Below are positions 2,125-40,328 of a stretch of 58,545 nucleotides of DNA, one piece after another (position 1 is the first letter of the stretch; every line of letters starts with the position of its first letter). The DNA lies in contig CABXUO010000004.1 of NCBI GenBank assembly GCA_902515455.1, forward strand, positions 1 through 58,545, read 5' to 3'. The translations under genes were made by a program, and so were the position numbers. The notes below the pieces were generated by a model. The model was given only the letters and a program-made list of their open reading frames with translations, was not told the DNA's origin and did not search any database. This DNA is from an uncultured SAR86 cluster bacterium (GTDB lineage Bacteria; Pseudomonadota; Gammaproteobacteria; Magnimaribacterales; D2472).

Positions 2125-2891
2125 GTGATAGATCTCGCAGACGAAAATTAGGTCAAAACTATCTAATCGATCCTGTAATTTTATTTGAGATTGAGCAAGC
2201 TATAAATCCCCAAAAAAATAATTTATTTTTTGAAATTGGTCCAGGCACAGGTGCCCTCACTGAGAAATTGGTTAGTCAAAATATAAAAATTATCGCAATG
2301 GATATTGATCAAAAAAATATAAATTTGCTTATGCAAAAATATGATGCTTCTAAACATCAATTTATTCATGGGGATATATTAAAAGAATCATTAAATTTTT
2401 TAGGTGCAAAAAAGCATAGAATCGTTGGAAATCTTCCATACAACATTTCTACTCAAATAATTTTAAAGTTAGTAAATTATTTTAATGCAATCGAGGATAT
2501 GCATTTTTTGGTACAAAAAGAAGTTGCTCATAGGATTTGCGCCTCAAATCATTCAGGGGACTGGGGCAGGCTTGGAGTCAAAATTTCTGTTTTTTTTCAA
2601 ACTGAAATACTCTTTGATGTTCCACCTGAATCTTTTGATATAAAACCAAAAGTTCAGTCTTCTTTTATAAGGTTAATACCTCGAACAACACCACTGATTT
2701 CAATGAACGAAAATATAAAGTTTTCTAAATTAGTAGATCACTCTTTTGCAAATAAAAGAAAGGGTATAAAGAATAATCTAAAAAAATTTAATATTGACTT
2801 TAAAAAGCTTACTATCAATCCGCTTGCAAGAGCAGAGGAGTTATCGATAGAGGAATTCATTTCAATTTTTAGAGCAATAAGAATTAAATGA
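2121..2891 (+). CDS. rsmA: 16S rRNA adenine dimethyltransferase KsgA/RsmA
   Basis: LGQNYL, EIGPGTGALT, GNLPYNIST, QKEVA, PKVQS. Confidence 0.97.
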   Translation: MSDRSRRRKLGQNYLIDPVILFEIEQAINPQKNNLFFEIGPGTGALTEKLVSQNIKIIAMDIDQKNINLLMQKYDASKHQFIHGDILKESLNFLGAKKHRIVGNLPYNISTQIILKLVNYFNAIEDMHFLVQKEVAHRICASNHSGDWGRLGVKISVFFQTEILFDVPPESFDIKPKVQSSFIRLIPRTTPLISMNENIKFSKLVDHSFANKRKGIKNNLKKFNIDFKKLTINPLARAEELSIEEFISIFRAIRIK

Positions 2892-3691
2892 GTACATACG
2901 TTATTGGTGATATACATGGTTGTTTTGATCAATTTGTAGATCTGCTTAATAAGATTAATTACAAAAAAGATGAAGATAAAATCATTCTAGTGGGTGACTT
3001 AGTAAATAGAGGTCCTGACTCTCTATCGGTTTTAAATTATTGTATGGCTGATTCCAACATTACTACGGTCTTGGGAAATCATGATCTATATTTGCTTTAT
3101 CTTTTGAGTATTAATAAAGCCAAAGGTAAATTAAAAGAAGTAATTAAGTCCGATAATAATAAAATTTTTGAATGGCTTATAAAAAAACCCTTTTTTATAG
3201 AATTTTTTGAACAATCATCTAAAAACACATTTTACATTACCCATGCTGGTATTCCTGAAATATGGTCACCAAGTAAAGCAAAGAAGCTTGCTTCAGAAAC
3301 ATCCTCAATGCTTAAAAAAGAGCCTTCGAAAATGCTTGAGATGATGTGGGGTGATGAACCTAATCGATGGGAGGATAAATTAGATGGTCAAGATAGATAT
3401 AGAATAATTATAAATTATCTAACAAGAATGAGATTTGTTGGGGATAATTGCACACTTGATATGAAAAACAAAGGTTTAAAACCGTCTAGAGGCTATAAAC
3501 CTTGGTTCAATTATAAATCTAAGTCTCATGAAAAAAATAAAGAATACTATATATTTGGCCATTGGGCAGCCTTGAATGGACGAACTAGGAATGATCACTT
3601 TATTGGCTTAGATACTGGCTGTGTATGGGGAAATAAACTTACTGCCATTAGATTAGAAGATAAAAAGCTATTTCAAGTAGAAGCAAAATGA
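2888..3691 (+). CDS. apaH: Symmetrical bis(5'-nucleosyl)-tetraphosphatase
   Basis: GDIHG, GDLVNRGP, LGNHD, HAG, FGHWAAL, LDTGCVWG; operon context. Confidence 0.96.
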   Translation: MSTYVIGDIHGCFDQFVDLLNKINYKKDEDKIILVGDLVNRGPDSLSVLNYCMADSNITTVLGNHDLYLLYLLSINKAKGKLKEVIKSDNNKIFEWLIKKPFFIEFFEQSSKNTFYITHAGIPEIWSPSKAKKLASETSSMLKKEPSKMLEMMWGDEPNRWEDKLDGQDRYRIIINYLTRMRFVGDNCTLDMKNKGLKPSRGYKPWFNYKSKSHEKNKEYYIFGHWAALNGRTRNDHFIGLDTGCVWGNKLTAIRLEDKKLFQVEAK

Positions 3692-4902
3692 GAATTTATA
3701 AAGTTGGTGGCGCTGTAAGAGATACCTTGCTAGGACTTGAGCCAACCGATAATGACTGGGTGGTAGTCGGTAGTACTCCTAAAGAAATGCTATCAATGGG
3801 TTACAAACAAGTTGGCAAAGATTTTCCAGTATTTCTTCATCCCGATACCAAAGAAGAATATGCGCTAGCTAGAAAAGAGAGAAGCACAGGACCAGGTCAT
3901 GCAGCATTCAACTTTAGTTATAGCGCGAATGTAACTCTTGAAGAAGATTTAAGCAGAAGAGACATTACGATTAATGCAATTGCAATGGATGATGCAGGTA
4001 ATCTAATTGATCCATTAAATGGCAAGGGCGATATAGAAAATAGAATTATTAGGCATGTATCAGATGCTTTTATTGAAGACCCTCTAAGGGTTTTAAGAGT
4101 GGCTAGATTTTATTCAAAATTAAAAGAATTAGGATTTAAAATACATGAATCAACTGAGGAGTTACTAAATCGACTTTTGCCTAGTATTATCCATCTGCCT
4201 GGGGAGAGAATTTGGCAAGAAACAGAAAAAGTACTTAAATCTAATAATCCTATTCCATATTTTGAACTATTGTATGCAACTTACTACAGCAGTAACTGGA
4301 GAAAAAATAATAATCCACTATTTAATTATGCTTTCGTTCCTGCAATTGATACTTGGATAAACACCATTAAAGTAAAGTTCTTCCATAGATTTCACGCGCC
4401 CAATTACATTAATCCTGAAGACTATTATCCTAATTCAATGGAGGGAGATTGGCGAATAAATCCTGGATTAAAAACTCCTCAAAGCTGGTGGGCCATAGTT
4501 GTATCTAATATTAAAACAAGAACTTATTTAGATGATTTAAATAAAAAGCTGAAGGTTCCTAATAGCTATAGAAGGATGTCAGAATTAGTATTTGATTTTA
4601 GAGAAAAATATTTTAGTAAATATAATGAGCTTGACTTCGAAAATAAAGTTAAGAGTTTATATAGATGCTTAGAGAGAATTCAACCATCCAAAGATTTAGA
4701 GTTTGCCACTTCTGTTACTTTTCTTGCTGCACACAATATTATTGGAGAAGATATTAATCTTTGGAGGCCTTTTCTAGAAAAATATTCTGAAATCCTTCCA
4801 ACTGACGAAGAAAAAAAATTAGATGGATCTAAAATTCAAGAAATTTTAGAAGAGAGAAAAATTAGACTTATTGAAGAAGAAATAAAGAAAGACATAGATT
4901 AA
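3688..4902 (+). CDS. cca: Class II tRNA nucleotidyltransferase (CCA-adding), no HD domain
   Basis: VGGAVRD, DNDWVV, VGKDFPVFLHP, EYALARKE, EDLSRRDITINA, EDPLRVLRVARF, ERIWQE. Confidence 0.92.
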   Translation: MRIYKVGGAVRDTLLGLEPTDNDWVVVGSTPKEMLSMGYKQVGKDFPVFLHPDTKEEYALARKERSTGPGHAAFNFSYSANVTLEEDLSRRDITINAIAMDDAGNLIDPLNGKGDIENRIIRHVSDAFIEDPLRVLRVARFYSKLKELGFKIHESTEELLNRLLPSIIHLPGERIWQETEKVLKSNNPIPYFELLYATYYSSNWRKNNNPLFNYAFVPAIDTWINTIKVKFFHRFHAPNYINPEDYYPNSMEGDWRINPGLKTPQSWWAIVVSNIKTRTYLDDLNKKLKVPNSYRRMSELVFDFREKYFSKYNELDFENKVKSLYRCLERIQPSKDLEFATSVTFLAAHNIIGEDINLWRPFLEKYSEILPTDEEKKLDGSKIQEILEERKIRLIEEEIKKDID

Positions 4903-31198: not shown

Positions 31199-32287
31199 AT
31201 GGATTTTTCAAATTTCCAAGCATTTGACAACTTAAATACTGAAATCATTATCTTAGATGGAGATAGTTTCAATTTAGTATGGATGAATGAAGCTGCAAAA
31301 GCTGCACATTGGACTGGTGATTCCTCTAAACTGAAAGGTAAAACAATTTTATCAATACTAGACGAACGAACTGGAGATCAAATCAATCAGATTCTTCGAA
31401 AAACTAAAAAGAATAATGGATCAGTTACCAAAAGAGACTTTGAGATTGTTCATAAGTCAGGGGATGCAAGAACAATTGATCTTACTATAACTTTTTCAGA
31501 CAAAAAGAACCTCGTATTTATTGAAGCTGTCAACATTGATAACCTCAATAAAATTATTGATTCAACTAGAAATTTTTCAACACAAAAAATAGCGGCAGGT
31601 TTAGCTAGAACCCTTGCTCATGAAGTGAAAAATCCTTTGTCAGGAATTAAAGGAAGCGCCCAAATTTTAAAATCAAAATATGAAGATGATTTCTCAAAAA
31701 AGTTTTTAAAAATTATTGAAGAAGAAACTGATAGACTAAATGAGATTGTAACCAGAATATTAACTCCAGCTAAAAAACCAACTTTTGAATATTTTAATCT
31801 TCATGAAGCTCTGCAGAGAGTTTTAGCTTTAAGCAATGCTGAATCTCAAGATAACTTAATCATTGAGAGGTACTATGATCCAAGTATTCCTGAAATTTAC
31901 GGGGACAAAAATTTATTTATTCAGGCCTTAATTAATATTACTCAGAATGCAGTTCATGCTTGCACGAATTTTGCAGAGAAACCATGTCTACAAATCCAAA
32001 CTAAAATCTCATACCGACAACCAATCAATGGAACAGTTCATAACACCCTAGCTGAAATAATCATTAGAGATAACGGGCCTGGAGTGAGCTCAGAGATTGA
32101 AGATCAAATTTTCTTCCCAATGATATCTGGTAAAGAAAATGGCTCTGGAATTGGGCTATCTATTTCTCAAGATATCGTGAGAATTCATGGTGGAGCAATA
32201 TCGTTTGATCGTAAAGATAAGCTAACAATATTTTCAATTTTAATACCTATATCTAATAACAATATTAATGGAGCCAAAAGTGCCTAA
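31199..32287 (+). CDS. ntrB: Nitrogen regulation sensor kinase NtrB
   Basis: PAS-like N-terminus; LAHEVKNPLSGIKGSAQ, YDPSIP, DNGPG, IFFPMISGK..GSGIGL. Confidence 0.95.
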   Translation: MDFSNFQAFDNLNTEIIILDGDSFNLVWMNEAAKAAHWTGDSSKLKGKTILSILDERTGDQINQILRKTKKNNGSVTKRDFEIVHKSGDARTIDLTITFSDKKNLVFIEAVNIDNLNKIIDSTRNFSTQKIAAGLARTLAHEVKNPLSGIKGSAQILKSKYEDDFSKKFLKIIEEETDRLNEIVTRILTPAKKPTFEYFNLHEALQRVLALSNAESQDNLIIERYYDPSIPEIYGDKNLFIQALINITQNAVHACTNFAEKPCLQIQTKISYRQPINGTVHNTLAEIIIRDNGPGVSSEIEDQIFFPMISGKENGSGIGLSISQDIVRIHGGAISFDRKDKLTIFSILIPISNNNINGAKSA

Positions 32288-33656
32288 AATATGGATAGCA
32301 GATGACGACGAGGCTATTCGTTTAGTGCTTGAGGAAGGTCTTAAGAGTGCTGGTTTTGAGATTAAAACATTTTCTAATGGCGAATTATTAATTGATGCTT
32401 TAAATACAGAGAAACCAGATTTAATTATCTCAGATATAAAAATGCCTGGTATGCATGGTTATGATCTTCTAAAACATGTAAAAAATAATTATGAAAGATT
32501 ACCAGTAATTATCATGACCGCTTTTACCGATATGCAAGCTGCTATTGATTCATATGGAGGTGGTGCTTTTGAATATATTCCTAAGCCATTTGATCTTGAG
32601 GAAGCTGTTATTACAATCCAAAAAGCCCTCGAAGAGCATAATGATGCCAAGCCAAAAAAGATTCCAAAAGCAGAAATTATTGGCTCAGCACCCTCAATGC
32701 AAATTGTCTTTAGATCAATTGGGAAGCTTGCCAATACTAATGCCACTGTTCTAATACAAGGAGAATCTGGAACGGGAAAAGAATTAGTCTCTAAGTCACT
32801 ACATAAAAATAGCCCTAGACATGATATGCCATTTATTGCTTTAAACATGGCCGATATTCCAAAAGAGCTCATTGAGTCAGAGTTATTTGGGCATGAAAAG
32901 GGGGCCTTTACTGGCGCAGTGGAACAAAGAATTGGTAGGTTTGAACAGGCAAATGGGGGAACTCTTTTCCTTGATGAGATTGGAGATATGCCTCTTGAAA
33001 CTCAGACTCGCTTACTAAGAGTCTTATCAAACAAAGAATTTTTTAGGGTTGGTGGAGATAAACCTATAAAAGTAGATGTTCGAATTTTAGCCGCTACACA
33101 TCAAAGCCTCGAATCACTTGTTGCCGCTGGTTCATTCAGAGAAGATCTCTACTATAGATTAAACGTTATCAGGGTTGATGTGCCTCCATTAAGACAAAGA
33201 AAAGAGGATATTGCTGACTTGTCATCTGCTTTTTTGAAAAGACATGCAGATTCCTTGATGGATGAGCCAAAAGTACTCTATCCAGAGGCCCTGCTTGCCT
33301 TAACTCAATATGATTGGCCAGGAAATGTGAGGCAATTAGAAAATATCTGTTATTGGATTGCTCTAATGGCGCCTACTCAAAATGTAAATTTAGAAGATCT
33401 TCCTGCGGAAATTATTAATAATGATCAGTCCGATAAAGCTGAAAATGAAAATTGGCAATCAGGATTATCGAATTGGCTTGGTGAAATTTATCAAAGCAAA
33501 TCAGAGAATATGCTCGAAATCATTGAACCAGAGTTAGATAAAGTGATCATTGATTTTGCCTTAAGCAAAACAGGCGGAAAAAAACAAGATGCAGCTAAGG
33601 TTTTGGGTATTGGAAGAAATACTCTCTCAAAAAAAATTAAAGCTCAAAAAGCTTAA
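32280..33656 (+). CDS. ntrC: Nitrogen regulation response regulator NtrC
   Basis: Receiver domain (ADDD, SDIKMPG), GESGTGKE, GAFTGA, DEIGD, WPGNVRQLEN, Fis-type HTH; GTG at 32280 has a GGAG RBS (track start 32268). Confidence 0.96.
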   Translation: MPKIWIADDDEAIRLVLEEGLKSAGFEIKTFSNGELLIDALNTEKPDLIISDIKMPGMHGYDLLKHVKNNYERLPVIIMTAFTDMQAAIDSYGGGAFEYIPKPFDLEEAVITIQKALEEHNDAKPKKIPKAEIIGSAPSMQIVFRSIGKLANTNATVLIQGESGTGKELVSKSLHKNSPRHDMPFIALNMADIPKELIESELFGHEKGAFTGAVEQRIGRFEQANGGTLFLDEIGDMPLETQTRLLRVLSNKEFFRVGGDKPIKVDVRILAATHQSLESLVAAGSFREDLYYRLNVIRVDVPPLRQRKEDIADLSSAFLKRHADSLMDEPKVLYPEALLALTQYDWPGNVRQLENICYWIALMAPTQNVNLEDLPAEIINNDQSDKAENENWQSGLSNWLGEIYQSKSENMLEIIEPELDKVIIDFALSKTGGKKQDAAKVLGIGRNTLSKKIKAQKA

Positions 33657-36733: not shown

Positions 36734-37498
36734 TTAAGAATTCCACCAAGCCACGTCCGAGAATGCTCTGATGTCGATTTCATGCGTCCAAGCAGATCTA
36801 TGTTGCTGAGATAAATAGTAGTAAGTATCTGCAACGCTTGTAGGTAAAATCAAGCCATCATGCTCCATTCCTCTTGTCTCACGCAATTGTTGGAATAACT
36901 CCTCTCCGAGCATTTTTCCTAGGGTATCAGGAGCATCAACCATACCATCAACTACAATGTGAGCTACATGAATTCCCTTGGATGCAAATTCTGCATTTAA
37001 AGTTTGACACAACATCCTTCTTCCACCCATAGCTGCAGCATGTGAATGCTGATTCTTGTTGCCTCGCATTGCAGCTGTTGCCGAAGTTACAAGAAATGTC
37101 CCTGAACTTCTATCTTCCATAATCGGCATTAAAACTTTTGCTACTCTAAAAAGCCCAAGATTTGCCATTCTCCAGCCCCATTCAAACTCTTTTAAAGATG
37201 TTTCATTAAGCAGCTTCATTCCTGTTTGAGCACCAAGGTTGTAGACAAGGACTTCAATAGGGCCAACGTCTTTTTCAATCCTAAGAATTAGTTCTTCCAA
37301 GGCATTGTCTTCAATTGCATTAATTAAATAACCTGTTGCTGATCCACCTGCCTGCTCTATGTCAGAAACAAGTTGATCTAAACCTTTTTGATCAGATCTT
37401 CTGCATAAACATGAATGGAAGCCCTCTTTTGCAAACTTTTTTGCAACAGTGCCTCCAATGCCTGCGCCAGCTCCCAAGACTAAACAAACTTGTTTCAT
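36734..37498 (-). CDS. Short-chain dehydrogenase/reductase
   Basis: LGAGAGIG, TSATAAMRG, GIHVAHIVVDG, SAWTHE. Confidence 0.88.
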   Translation of the reverse strand: MKQVCLVLGAGAGIGGTVAKKFAKEGFHSCLCRRSDQKGLDQLVSDIEQAGGSATGYLINAIEDNALEELILRIEKDVGPIEVLVYNLGAQTGMKLLNETSLKEFEWGWRMANLGLFRVAKVLMPIMEDRSSGTFLVTSATAAMRGNKNQHSHAAAMGGRRMLCQTLNAEFASKGIHVAHIVVDGMVDAPDTLGKMLGEELFQQLRETRGMEHDGLILPTSVADTYYYLSQQHRSAWTHEIDIRAFSDVAWWNS

Positions 37499-37618
37499 AG
37501 AAATTTCTTATGCCTCAGATTCAATTGTTGCTTTAACTGTTTTTTTACTTTAACTTTTTATTTTCAAAAATCATAGTAAGGACGAAAAATGGAGATGAAA
37601 TATGGAAGATTAATTTTA

Positions 37619-39961
37619 TTAGAAGCGAAACTCATATGGATATCCATGGAAAACTATCTGATTTATTCCTGCTGCAAATGCATTGCCAGCTAGCCTTTCA
37701 ACATCATTTTGCTTTAACCTATCATAATTAAAGTCTATTTTTATAAATGACTCTGAGCTTATAATTTTTCTATTAGCAACATTGCCAGCTGAAGATGCCA
37801 ATTTTAAAAAATCAAAACTTCCTCCAGCGAAGAGACCCTCACTCTCAGGAATATCTGCAATGGCATATGCATCTAGATAATTCCCATATCCACCATGTGC
37901 TTGAAGCCTTAATTTAATATTTAAGGAGCTTGCCCAACTTTTGATTGGTAATAGAAACTCTGTCATGAAAAGCTGTTCTCTGGTATTTAGGTAGTCCTCG
38001 TATACTCTTTCACTAAGGTTATGTTCTGACTTGTATACAAATTCTTCACCAAATATTGCATATAAGTATTTCGATTCTCCATTCTTTTTAAAAATTAAAG
38101 GCAGGTATGGAGCAATACTATACCCATGCATCTCCTCAAAAGTTTTAAAAAACTTTTGTGACCAAGGCAGCTCACCAATCAGCTCAAAACTATCAATGAA
38201 AAAGTTTCTAGGCTTATAGGGTTGAATATTTTTAATCCATTGATTCCCAAGCTTCTCAATATATTCCTCAATTCCTCCTTTATTTAAATGATCCAATACC
38301 AGAGACTCATCCCAAGCCCCTTTATAAGCAGAGCCAAGAGTATTATGAGAAACATTATTTTGATAAATAAAAAACAATTTATATTTGCCTTTTGGAATAT
38401 CTAATTTAAGTCCTGCGCCATCAAATAAATCTGTAACATCTCTAAATTCACTCAAAGTTTCTTTTTTTGTTGATCGCTTTACTCTTGTCAGAATAACTTT
38501 TACTAAATGAGTGTCTTTATCAAAGTTTCCAATAGTTTTATTAACAATGAAGTTAGTTTTATTTACATATGAAGGTTCTTTAATTTTCGCTGGTTGAAAT
38601 ACTCCGCTTACAGGACCAATGATATCTATCTCCGATTTTATTAGTTGCTGTGCGGGAAAATCCTTAATGAATGGTCCTCCACTCGACCAGCCACTTCCAA
38701 GGGTAAGATCTACATTTAATTTTAAAGAACTTGCCTCTGAAAAAAGATATTTAAGATTATCGAAAAAAGGCTTTTCTCCAACTTGAAAGATTTTATTTTC
38801 ATTTTGCATTAAATATTTTTTTGGCATTCCAATTGTCAATGTTTGCAGCTCAATTGAAGAAAACTTAGCTTGTTTAAATTTTTTAAGTTCTGTTTGAATC
38901 TGCGATTTTTCTACAACATTTCCTGGCCACCACCATCTTAAAACTGGAAAGTAACTTTCATCTGGATTGGCCCATTCATCAACTTTAAAACAATTTTCAT
39001 TATTTGAACTTTTTCTTTGACTAAGAACTAAGATTTTTGCTTTGCCCCCCTCCAAAGATAATGTAAATTTTTTATCGGAATTTTTATTTAAAAATTCTTT
39101 TATTACTCCGTCATAAGGATCAAGAATTTTTATACTTATAAAAGAGTCATCTATGCGAAAATTTCTTTCACTTAATTGATAAGAGTCATTAAAAAAATAA
39201 ATAATTTTATAAGAGCCACATGACCTAATAGCTGATCTAAAGTAATTTTTATCCTCATTTACAAAAGTTATCGATGGATTAATATTTAAATTATTTAGAA
39301 CTTTTATTAGATCTTTTGAATCGTTGAGTTGGTGGACAAGCTTAGAAATCTGTTCTATATACCCAACAACTTCTTTATCTCTTATTTCAAAATTAGACAA
39401 TCCAGTTGCACGTTGCGGAAAATCACCTATGAAAATTACTTCCAACCCTTCATTTATATGGGCAAGAATTTTCTTCAAAATACTCGGAGATGTATGCTCT
39501 AGGTCAGTTATAAGTAATATTTGATAAGAAGCTTTTCCTATATTTAATTTATTATCAAAAACTGTTGATGACAAAATATTTTTTTTGCTAATCCGATCAT
39601 AGGTATAACCATTTAAATTTATTAATCTACTAGTTTCAGACTCTTGCTTATTTGGATTTAATTTTTGGAATTGAAAATTCGGTTCATCGGGCCAATCATT
39701 GCTATTTAAAAACCATGCAACATTTATTTCTGGAACTCCAAGCTGCATTGCATAAGACATTCTAGCTATGCTTGTATTTAGCTCACTTACATTTTGCCAG
39801 TTGGTTCCGTAATTAAAATTGCTGGTTAAGGCAATAGGACCTGCTGTATATAATTTACCGAAAAATGAATTTGGAAATGGGTACCATTTGTTTTCGTCAG
39901 AGCTGCAACCTAAAAATAAAATTAAAGGGAGCAACAGCAAGATTTTTTTTAAATTAATCAA
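37619..39961 (-). CDS. Lipoprotein glycoside hydrolase, GH106 (alpha-L-rhamnosidase)-like, circularly permuted
   Basis: Lipobox FLGC; RWWWPGN, GSGWSSGGP, FIDSFE, GYSIAPYLP, QAHG, DIPESE, KLASSA, SESF, GINQIVFHG; N-half has ARMSYAMQLG.P, GYTYDRI, YFFND. Confidence 0.8.
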   Translation of the reverse strand: MINLKKILLLLPLILFLGCSSDENKWYPFPNSFFGKLYTAGPIALTSNFNYGTNWQNVSELNTSIARMSYAMQLGVPEINVAWFLNSNDWPDEPNFQFQKLNPNKQESETSRLINLNGYTYDRISKKNILSSTVFDNKLNIGKASYQILLITDLEHTSPSILKKILAHINEGLEVIFIGDFPQRATGLSNFEIRDKEVVGYIEQISKLVHQLNDSKDLIKVLNNLNINPSITFVNEDKNYFRSAIRSCGSYKIIYFFNDSYQLSERNFRIDDSFISIKILDPYDGVIKEFLNKNSDKKFTLSLEGGKAKILVLSQRKSSNNENCFKVDEWANPDESYFPVLRWWWPGNVVEKSQIQTELKKFKQAKFSSIELQTLTIGMPKKYLMQNENKIFQVGEKPFFDNLKYLFSEASSLKLNVDLTLGSGWSSGGPFIKDFPAQQLIKSEIDIIGPVSGVFQPAKIKEPSYVNKTNFIVNKTIGNFDKDTHLVKVILTRVKRSTKKETLSEFRDVTDLFDGAGLKLDIPKGKYKLFFIYQNNVSHNTLGSAYKGAWDESLVLDHLNKGGIEEYIEKLGNQWIKNIQPYKPRNFFIDSFELIGELPWSQKFFKTFEEMHGYSIAPYLPLIFKKNGESKYLYAIFGEEFVYKSEHNLSERVYEDYLNTREQLFMTEFLLPIKSWASSLNIKLRLQAHGGYGNYLDAYAIADIPESEGLFAGGSFDFLKLASSAGNVANRKIISSESFIKIDFNYDRLKQNDVERLAGNAFAAGINQIVFHGYPYEFRF

Positions 39962-40027
39962 ATTATTAATATTTTAAATCTAATTTAAAATAAATGGATA
40001 GCAAGCAATAATTTTAATGGAGAATAC

Positions 40028-40210
40028 ATGATGAATAATTGGTGGAGAATTTGGGCTAAATCTCTAGGAGAGAAAGTTGGAGAAAGTGACAAACAAGCTG
40101 ACACAATTGCTGTGGTAAGGACTATTTGGTGGGTCACTCATCTTGCCACATGTTGGTTTATTATCTTGAATGCGATAGCAAATCATGGCTGGGGATTAAT
40201 TGGAATTTAG
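40028..40210 (+). CDS. Small hypothetical membrane protein
   Basis: GGAG RBS; WRIWAKSLGEK...AD..A..RT followed by one TM helix. Confidence 0.7.
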   Translation: MMNNWWRIWAKSLGEKVGESDKQADTIAVVRTIWWVTHLATCWFIILNAIANHGWGLIGI

Positions 40211-40252
40211 GGAATCGGGTGTAATGTTTTAAGAAAATATGCTCGATGAAGT

Positions 40253-40328
40253 TGGTGCCCAGAGGTGGAATCGAACCACCGACACAAGGATTTTCAGTCC
40301 TTTGCTCTACCGACTGAGCTATCTGGGC
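40253..40328 (-). tRNA. tRNA-Phe (GAA)
   Basis: GCCCAGATAGCTCAGTCGGTAGAGCAAAGGACTGAAAATCCTTGTGTCGGTGGTTCGATTCCACCTCTGGGCACCA: 76 nt cloverleaf with encoded CCA. Confidence 0.98.

Follow-up and report, generated by a model that had tools for sequence, protein, structure and literature searches.

The window analyzed here (58,545 nucleotides of contig CABXUO010000004.1, assembly GCA_902515455.1, from an uncultured SAR86 cluster bacterium) carries on its minus strand, at 37619-39961, a single open reading frame (ORF) of 780 amino acids and a stop, with a TTG start. We consider it highly likely that this gene encodes a secreted, lipid-anchored glycosidase of the GH106 type and that it is a natural, anciently fixed circular permutant. 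The two halves of the protein have exchanged places relative to its canonical relatives; this order has a single origin and has been conserved, and the similarity of fold and the catalytic Glu pair have been kept. A preliminary description, made from the sequence alone, had proposed that a GH106-type enzyme had undergone circular permutation in nature, and the sequence comparisons, structure models, population and phylogenetic data, and signs of selection presented below bear it out.

In the mechanism that we propose, an ordinary chain would run from a signal through barrel strands β1 to β8 and helix α8 into an α/β domain and then a β-sandwich. The permuted chain would start with a new lipoprotein signal, followed by the loop and helix that normally stand behind β8, and would continue through the α/β domain, the β-sandwich, and a linker of ~14 residues to β1-β8 and the stop. 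The re-threaded chain would build the same three-dimensional enzyme, and its new termini would lie on the catalytic face of the barrel. The parts of the gene are as follows (pLDDT, predicted local distance difference test).

39905..39961, minus strand: TTG start and putative signal peptide with lipobox LFLG-C19 (residues 1-19; sequence, pattern match)
39800..39904, minus strand: segment found behind β8 in canonical relatives, with the WYPF loop (residues 20-54; alignment)
39746..39799, minus strand: long helix, probably barrel helix α8 (residues 55-72; model DSSP and homology)
39272..39745, minus strand: α/β domain resembling 'domain B' of GH42, with GYTYDRI (residues 73-230; model secondary structure, structure matches)
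39017..39271, minus strand: seven-stranded β-sandwich, the C-terminal domain of canonical relatives (residues 231-315; model, alignment to the canonical protein P0072)
38975..39016, minus strand: linker from the old C-terminus to the old N-terminus (residues 316-329; low pLDDT, not conserved)
37622..38974, minus strand: strands β1-β8 of the (β/α)8 barrel (residues 330-780; 5mqm and 6q2f matches, PF17132, hhalign)
38354..38650, minus strand: β-domain insert between strand β3 and helix α3 (residues 438-536; model DSSP)
38183..38194, minus strand: D590-S591-F592-E593, aligned with D458-S459-W460-E461 of the GH106 enzyme BT0986 (two Ca ligands and the catalytic acid; alignments)
37751..37753, minus strand: E737 in SSESF, aligned with E593 of BT0986 (general base and Ca ligand; alignments)

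All the motifs on which the proposal had been built were found in the ORF translation where it had placed them.

Residue 19: C19 of the lipobox motif ...LILFLGC
Residues 26-29: WYPF
Residues 54-83: NWQNVSELNTSIARMSYAMQLGVPEINVAW
Residues 118-124: GYTYDRI
Residues 255-258: YFFN
Residues 281-285: DPYDG
Residues 314-323: linker motif SQRKSSNNEN
Residues 339-348 (nt ~38940): P..RWWWPGN
Residues 422-430: GSGWSSGGP
Residues 588-593: FIDSFE
Residues 613-621: GYSIAPYLP
Residues 687-690: QAHG
Residues 703-708: DIPESE
Residues 720-725: KLASSA
Residues 736-739: SESF
Residues 764-776: AGINQIVFHGYPY, with the stop codon four residues further on

The swapped order was evident in pairwise alignments. BLASTP against P0072 (799 aa) gave two offset diagonals, one joining residues 330-778 of the query to 54-502 of P0072 (45% identity, E 4e-136) and the other joining residues 22-315 to 506-799 (26% identity, E 2e-33). 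Together they span residues 22-778 of the query and 54-799 of P0072, a homologue of similar length, and a second canonical protein, P0118, gave the same two; two offset diagonals had been predicted for a dot-plot against characterized GH106 enzymes. Residues 20-54 align directly behind HG.PY of canonical proteins, and the β-sandwich (231-315) corresponds to the final ~85 residues of P0072. At 22 canonical genomic loci the two parts lie mostly 7-16 nt apart, which puts the cut between '...HG.PY.Y' and 'DG..WYPF', with hardly any loss of sequence. Alignments and model secondary structure both place it just after β8, in agreement with the earlier suggestion of a cut near the last barrel strand.

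Profile comparisons gave the same picture. A profile of 47 canonical short forms (A2) was collinear with 6q2f over 410-965 in one stretch (E 3e-35) and matched 5mqm in four stretches, in order. The profile of 60 permuted forms (A1) matched the same 5mqm segments with their order swapped. hhalign, a sequential aligner, recovered only the barrel diagonal against the canonical profile (100% probability). Judged from these alignments, the swapped order of the halves is far beyond chance.

Relatives were collected by a search of 5.8 billion proteins, which returned 255; 120 of these were taken further. Chain order was classed by BLASTP of the two halves for 123 proteins (the 120 relatives, the query, and two long relatives), of which 70 were permuted, 51 were canonical, and two had the barrel part only. 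Neither barrel-only protein was accepted as a split form: P0058 is a gene call cut short, matching residues 265-767 of the permuted P0026 at 99% identity, and P0080 is a 441-aa fragment. In length (about 750-825 aa in nearly all cases), the canonical proteins equal the permuted ones. The preliminary description had counted a loss of the distal domains as part of the permutation; this did not hold, because the canonical-order sisters are equally short and already lack the extra domains of the characterized enzymes BT0986 and RHA-P. The loss preceded the permutation or is unrelated to it. A search for longer relatives (1366-3900 aa) gave two matches; each had the canonical order and additional domains at the C-terminus.

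A phylogeny of the barrel part was reconstructed with FastTree from 120 of the 123 proteins, with the root placed on the two long canonical ones (P0025, P0028, and P0084 were left out because their barrel match was under 400 residues). All 68 permuted proteins in the tree and the two fragments formed one clade with a Shimodaira-Hasegawa-like support of 99, and one change of order was needed. By this sequence tree, the permuted order arose once. With the barrel part as query, an exhaustive phmmer search retrieved 2202 proteins (E up to 0.001) from 1.84 billion cluster representatives. The best 150 of these comprised 132 canonical proteins, three permuted ones (all from the same clade), three short fragments ending right behind the barrel, and 12 fragments that could not be assigned; no second independent permutation in the family was seen among these best 150 matches.

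Permuted order was present at 12 of 79 named loci, all in metagenome-assembled genomes (MAGs) of Gammaproteobacteria labelled Halieaceae, Haliea, Halioglobus, Pseudomonadales or, in one case, only 'Proteobacteria'. The canonical-order sisters came from Myxococcota, Thermodesulfobacteriota, and other MAGs. The permutation probably arose by duplication and fusion or by fission and fusion. More than one family member nearby was seen at only two of the 79 loci, both in distant Acidobacteriota, and a search of the window's own genome for a remnant second copy gave one match only, the gene itself, which is weak evidence. Within-genome paralogues such as those at L014 and L016 would be the raw material needed by the duplication-fusion route. 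These loci are two contigs of one Thermodesulfobacteriota MAG, each with a canonical short form, and hold the canonical sequences closest to the query (43-45% identity in the barrel part). At another locus, L017, in a MAG labelled Nitrosopumilus sp., positions 2570-3928 matched the barrel part with 39% identity; no second half was detected in the roughly 6 kb of contig beyond it. The match may represent a barrel-only form, a divergent form, or a mis-binned bacterial contig.

The source assembly is of metagenome type, 59% complete and in 59 contigs, and a chimeric contig or a mis-joined tandem pair could give a false fused frame. We give this practically no credence and rejected an assembly chimera. 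The same order occurred in 70 of the 123 proteins, from many sources, and at the 12 named MAG loci. In four runs, each from a different marine or seawater study, contigs bridged the junction (nt 38975-39022); one of these may be the source sample. The preliminary description had suggested mapping reads across nt ~38950-39030. No RNA run was listed among those found to contain the sequence. The gene was also found in four of 24 other species of the genus (5 of 25 species with the window), at the same chromosomal site, always between tRNA-Phe and a short-chain dehydrogenase (SDR) gene, and with the 12 named loci this answers the suggestion that the order be sought in related genomes. It was not found in three further families (16 genomes) of this order, in a survey in which many genomes were incomplete.

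Moreover, the frame is under purifying selection, which also counts against an artefact. For the five orthologues of the genus, pairwise ratios of nonsynonymous to synonymous substitution (dN/dS) were 0.13-0.18 overall, 0.18-0.28 in the N-terminal half, and 0.09-0.14 in the barrel; those of the linker were erratic (0.14-1.8 over 14 codons). On these sequence comparisons, the permuted form is conserved under purifying selection. One contig of run X4 carried 11 clustered substitutions at window positions 39668-39721 (residues ~81-98, the start of the α/β domain), together with one nucleotide lost at 39702 and one gained behind 39707, so that the frame was shifted and restored after 5 nt. These differences are probably strain variation.

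The exchange of the halves was also found in structure models. An AlphaFold2 model of the full protein, built on an alignment of 60 permuted sequences, had a mean pLDDT of 87.9 and a predicted template modelling score (pTM) of 0.90. Residues 326-779 matched 31-634 of 5mqm (VIA-align, Z 26.2, root-mean-square deviation 3.5 Å, 398 aligned residues), and the model barrel matched 41-685 of 6q2f (Z 18.3). Residues 20-315 were also folded alone, on an alignment (A4) of 12 permuted-order sequences (the window and 11 loci) and 17 canonical loci. The best match of this model was 6q2f 600-967 (Z 18.4, 270 aligned), with 5mqm 594-922 at Z 13.6 (221 aligned); the next were post-barrel domains of GH42, GH164, and GH35-type enzymes. 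As the matched regions are the post-barrel parts of 6q2f and 5mqm, the second diagonal is confirmed in three dimensions. An N-terminal half from an unrelated family, or a single collinear alignment to known GH106 proteins, had been named as grounds for giving up the proposal; the N-terminal half instead best matched two GH106 enzymes, and the permuted profile and the models matched the solved enzymes in swapped order. The model secondary structure gave the following barrel strands.

Residues 340-345: β1
Residues 369-374: β2
Residues 416-420: β3, followed by the inserted β-domain (438-536)
Residues 586-589: β4
Residues 683-687: β5
Residues 704-707: β6
Residues 735-738: β7
Residues 768-775: β8, with the chain end at residue 780

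E593 lies on β4 and E737 on β7, the same strands as E461 and E593 of BT0986. The counterpart of the β-domain insert in 5mqm is larger (about residues 200-379, from the gap between aligned stretches). In the linker, which is not conserved among permuted sequences, residues 318-320 had a pLDDT below 50. The model secondary structure has no helix behind β8 at the C-terminus, where the protein ends five residues past the strand, and in canonical relatives the equivalent of helix 55-72 directly follows β8. For these two reasons we assign helix 55-72, the only candidate, as the likely barrel helix α8 that closes the barrel. The pTM and the order of the secondary-structure elements speak in favour of a fold that the re-threaded chain would close, in which the new termini would be adjacent and the old ones linked.

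A simpler event can be imagined in which domains were swapped at a boundary: residues 330-780 would contain the whole barrel, and accessory domains (the N-terminal 300 residues) would simply have been placed ahead of it. Most of the N-terminal part does consist of two separate domains, the α/β domain and the β-sandwich, and the assignment of α8 and the modelling of residues 20-50 leave some room for it. Yet the chain ends without a helix after β8 (768-775), whereas canonical relatives have the WYPF loop and then the long helix behind this strand, at a distance of 2-3 codons. W26, P28, F29, Y38, and P42 are invariant in permuted sequences, and W26, P28, N62, and R67 are invariant across both chain orders (alignment A4). 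Residues 20-51 had a pLDDT of 65-72 as part of the full model and of less than 50 when folded in the absence of the barrel; this fits a segment that packs on the barrel. GH42 barrels, which are ~390 residues long, align to the model only up to about residue 366 of their own chain. We therefore regard a mere domain swap as distinctly improbable and retain a permutation that cuts the barrel itself.

The active site could be compared with that of BT0986. The accessible part of one study gives E593 as its general base, E461 as its acid, and D458, S459, E538, E561, and E593 as its Ca ligands (PMC6828813). The corresponding residues of the window protein, all of them invariant in 60 of 60 permuted sequences, are these.

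D458 of BT0986: D590
S459: S591
E461 (acid): E593
E538: Q687
E561: E708
E593 (base): E737

The preliminary description had pointed to retained acidic motifs (DSFE, SESF), and it is within these that E593 and E737 align to the acid and the base. Among the Ca ligands D458, S459, E538, and E561, three of four appear to be kept (D590, S591, E708) in a profile alignment, which gives no geometry. With the acid, the base, and three of the four further Ca ligands kept, the catalytic machinery appears to be essentially retained, with one change of Glu to Gln. The structure 5mwk differs from 5mqm at the Glu equivalent to E593 of the window protein.

In the suggested check against the Glyco_hydro_106 hidden Markov model (Pfam PF17132), the protein passed the family cut-off with 90.7 bits against 29 (E 1.1e-25); the best stretch was residues 499-773 only, on profile positions 213-483 of 743. 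NCBIfam NF049897 (AlphaRhamBT4145) matched residues 329-777 on positions 4-416 of 897. Characterized GH106 members share a collinear architecture with an N-terminal barrel, and the window protein departs from it; we therefore class it within a short GH106-like subfamily, as a permuted variant and not an ordinary representative of GH106. It appears most similar to GH106 rhamnosidases and is best described in these terms. The protein would be an active, Ca-dependent, inverting exo-glycosidase, most likely an α-L-rhamnosidase that acts, in the periplasm or at the outer membrane, on marine glycans containing rhamnose.

Several observations weigh against parts of this reading. The tree was made by FastTree alone, compositional heterogeneity was flagged, and no approximately unbiased test was done; no duplication or split-gene intermediate was found among the sequences searched. 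The packing of α8 and the closeness of the termini are read from the order of secondary structure and from homology, not from measured contacts, and residues 20-50 were modelled with only moderate confidence (pLDDT 65-72). As for function, identity to characterized GH106 enzymes is only 15-21%, the NF049897 equivalog score (194.3 bits) is far below the cut-off of 1300, Gln (Q687) replaces the Ca ligand E538, and no other carbohydrate-active enzyme (CAZyme) and no transporter lies beside the gene, whose neighbours give no hint of a substrate.

The last four points also suit a permutant that is real and is not an α-L-rhamnosidase, having another glycosidase specificity or a non-catalytic binding role in the wide PF17132 superfamily. 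Because of the low NF049897 score and the change of E538 to Gln, rhamnosidase specificity is put forward here as a hypothesis. The accessible part of the literature on the family describes divergent subgroups of GH106 with altered active centres (PMC6828813), and the context of the gene has no link to rhamnose. On the other hand, the acid and base Glu and three of the four further Ca ligands do not vary, the two solved rhamnosidases outscore every other family by a wide margin as structural matches, and purifying selection is strongest on the barrel. Another role is thus a possibility that we take seriously and rather doubt.

The new N-terminus of the permuted GH106-type protein has an export signal of its own. 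MINLKKILLLLPLILFLG-C19 matches a PROSITE-like lipobox pattern, and close relatives keep the match, as expected from the lipoprotein signal (FLGC) in the preliminary description. Of 56 permuted proteins judged N-terminally complete, 53 had a hydrophobic leader and 17 the lipobox pattern. Canonical forms have the signal in front of β1, with the lipobox pattern in 18 of 42 that have complete N-termini. Since the canonical signal precedes β1, the permutant had to acquire a new export signal at its new N-terminus. In the window protein and its close relatives, which are of the lipobox type, the Cys is 7 residues ahead of W26; Halieaceae-type permuted proteins have a hydrophobic helix about 10 residues ahead of WYPF and no lipobox. 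In E. coli, Ser at position +2 of a lipoprotein directs sorting to the outer membrane. By analogy, Ser at +2 of the window protein suggests the same destination.

It is conceivable that the permutation was adaptive: with the chain opened at the β8-α8 loop, on the catalytic face, a tether 7-12 residues ahead of the invariant WYPF loop would hold the active site against the membrane. The tether would be the lipidated Cys in the window's genus and an uncleaved hydrophobic helix in the Halieaceae-type relatives. If so, this GH106 lineage would be specialized on membrane- or surface-bound rhamnose-containing glycoconjugates, not on soluble oligosaccharides, with lipopolysaccharide, glycolipids, and captured algal glycans as candidate targets. 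We think this unlikely, and mention it for its consequences.

The gene lies in a hypervariable spot of the genus, from tRNA-Phe to the SDR gene (window 36734-40328; also seen at loci L085-L092).

40253..40328, minus strand: tRNA-Phe(GAA), just upstream of the gene, one edge of the variable interval that holds it

Five species have the permuted GH106 gene at this spot, and two of the five carry about 2 kb in addition. At L085 there is an extra amidohydrolase gene and, between the tRNA and the GH106 gene, a sulfotransferase-like ORF. In other species the spot contains an Amidohydro_3 protein, a Rieske ring-hydroxylating oxygenase alpha subunit, and a 709-aa protein without a Pfam match, and in one genome (G012) it is almost empty (~90 bp). 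The GH106 protein is 76-81% identical between species and the flanking genes mostly 85-98%; the G+C content of the gene is 0.30 against about 0.35 in the flanks. The lower identity and lower G+C suggest either a faster rate of evolution or, within the island, histories that differ. A candidate ORF of 60 aa (40028-40210, plus strand) stands between tRNA-Phe and the start of the GH106 gene; it is rich in Trp and has a hydrophobic C-terminal half. A scan for promoters and terminators at the gene found no excess over shuffled sequences. About 4 kb from the gene, at 31199-33656, a histidine kinase and a sigma-54-dependent response regulator form a pair that is kept in all species checked, whether the GH106 gene is present or not, with no evident link to it.

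The closest known systems are the canonical short GH106-like proteins (about 750-825 aa; P0072 and loci L014-L036), the sister groups of the permuted clade. They have the same length and the same three domains with the inserted β-domain, and share RWWWPG, DSFE, QAHGG, DIPESE, SSESF, and WYPF with the window protein, to which they are 37-46% identical in the barrel part and 24-31% identical elsewhere. They differ in having the barrel first, with α8 and the two other domains last, and the signal ahead of β1 with a spacer of 15-35 residues. This sister clade is a natural control of the same length and domain content at about 40% identity, and the permuted and canonical pair makes folding pathways, the tolerance of the barrel for new termini, and the origin of the signal peptide testable.

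Among the characterized enzymes, BT0986 of Bacteroides thetaiotaomicron (PDB 5MQM/5MWK) is a GH106 α-L-rhamnosidase that acts on rhamnogalacturonan-II. Its barrel and post-barrel domains superpose on the model, and the equivalents of D458, S459, E461, E561, and E593 are kept. It differs in its length (1105 aa), canonical order, larger barrel insert, extra C-terminal domains after about residue 925, and E538 where the window protein has Gln, at 15-21% identity. RHA-P of Novosphingobium sp. PP1Y (PDB 6Q2F), another GH106 α-L-rhamnosidase, gave the best structural match of the N-terminal half; it has 1151 aa, canonical order, and additional domains. GH42, GH164, and GH35-type enzymes have the same three-domain architecture and matched both halves with Z of 9-15, but the likeness is at the level of the fold only, with 8-14% identity and canonical order.

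The literature searched, whose coverage leaves out most subscription journals and supplements, contained no report of a permuted GH106 or a permuted rhamnosidase, as judged in part by titles and the opening lines of abstracts. Profile- or domain-order-based CAZyme callers cover such proteins only in part (the best Pfam stretch here was residues 499-773), and the few source-supplied names seen for such proteins were 'hypothetical protein'. In ecological terms, the protein would be an accessory glycosidase of streamlined marine bacteria.

To our knowledge, natural circular permutations that cut inside a catalytic triosephosphate isomerase (TIM) barrel are rare, and GH70 compared with GH13 is the textbook case. 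The accessible part of one article describes that case as a natural circular permutation inside the (β/α)8 barrel with the catalytic motifs retained (PMC11046441). The window protein resembles GH70 in its permuted catalytic TIM barrel with kept catalytic motifs, and differs in family, clan, and reaction. The GH70 chain starts at helix α3 and ends at strand β3, whereas the window protein starts at the β8-α8 loop and, unlike GH70, has two whole accessory domains between α8 and β1. It would be a second, cleanly documented glycosidase example of a permutation inside the catalytic TIM barrel.

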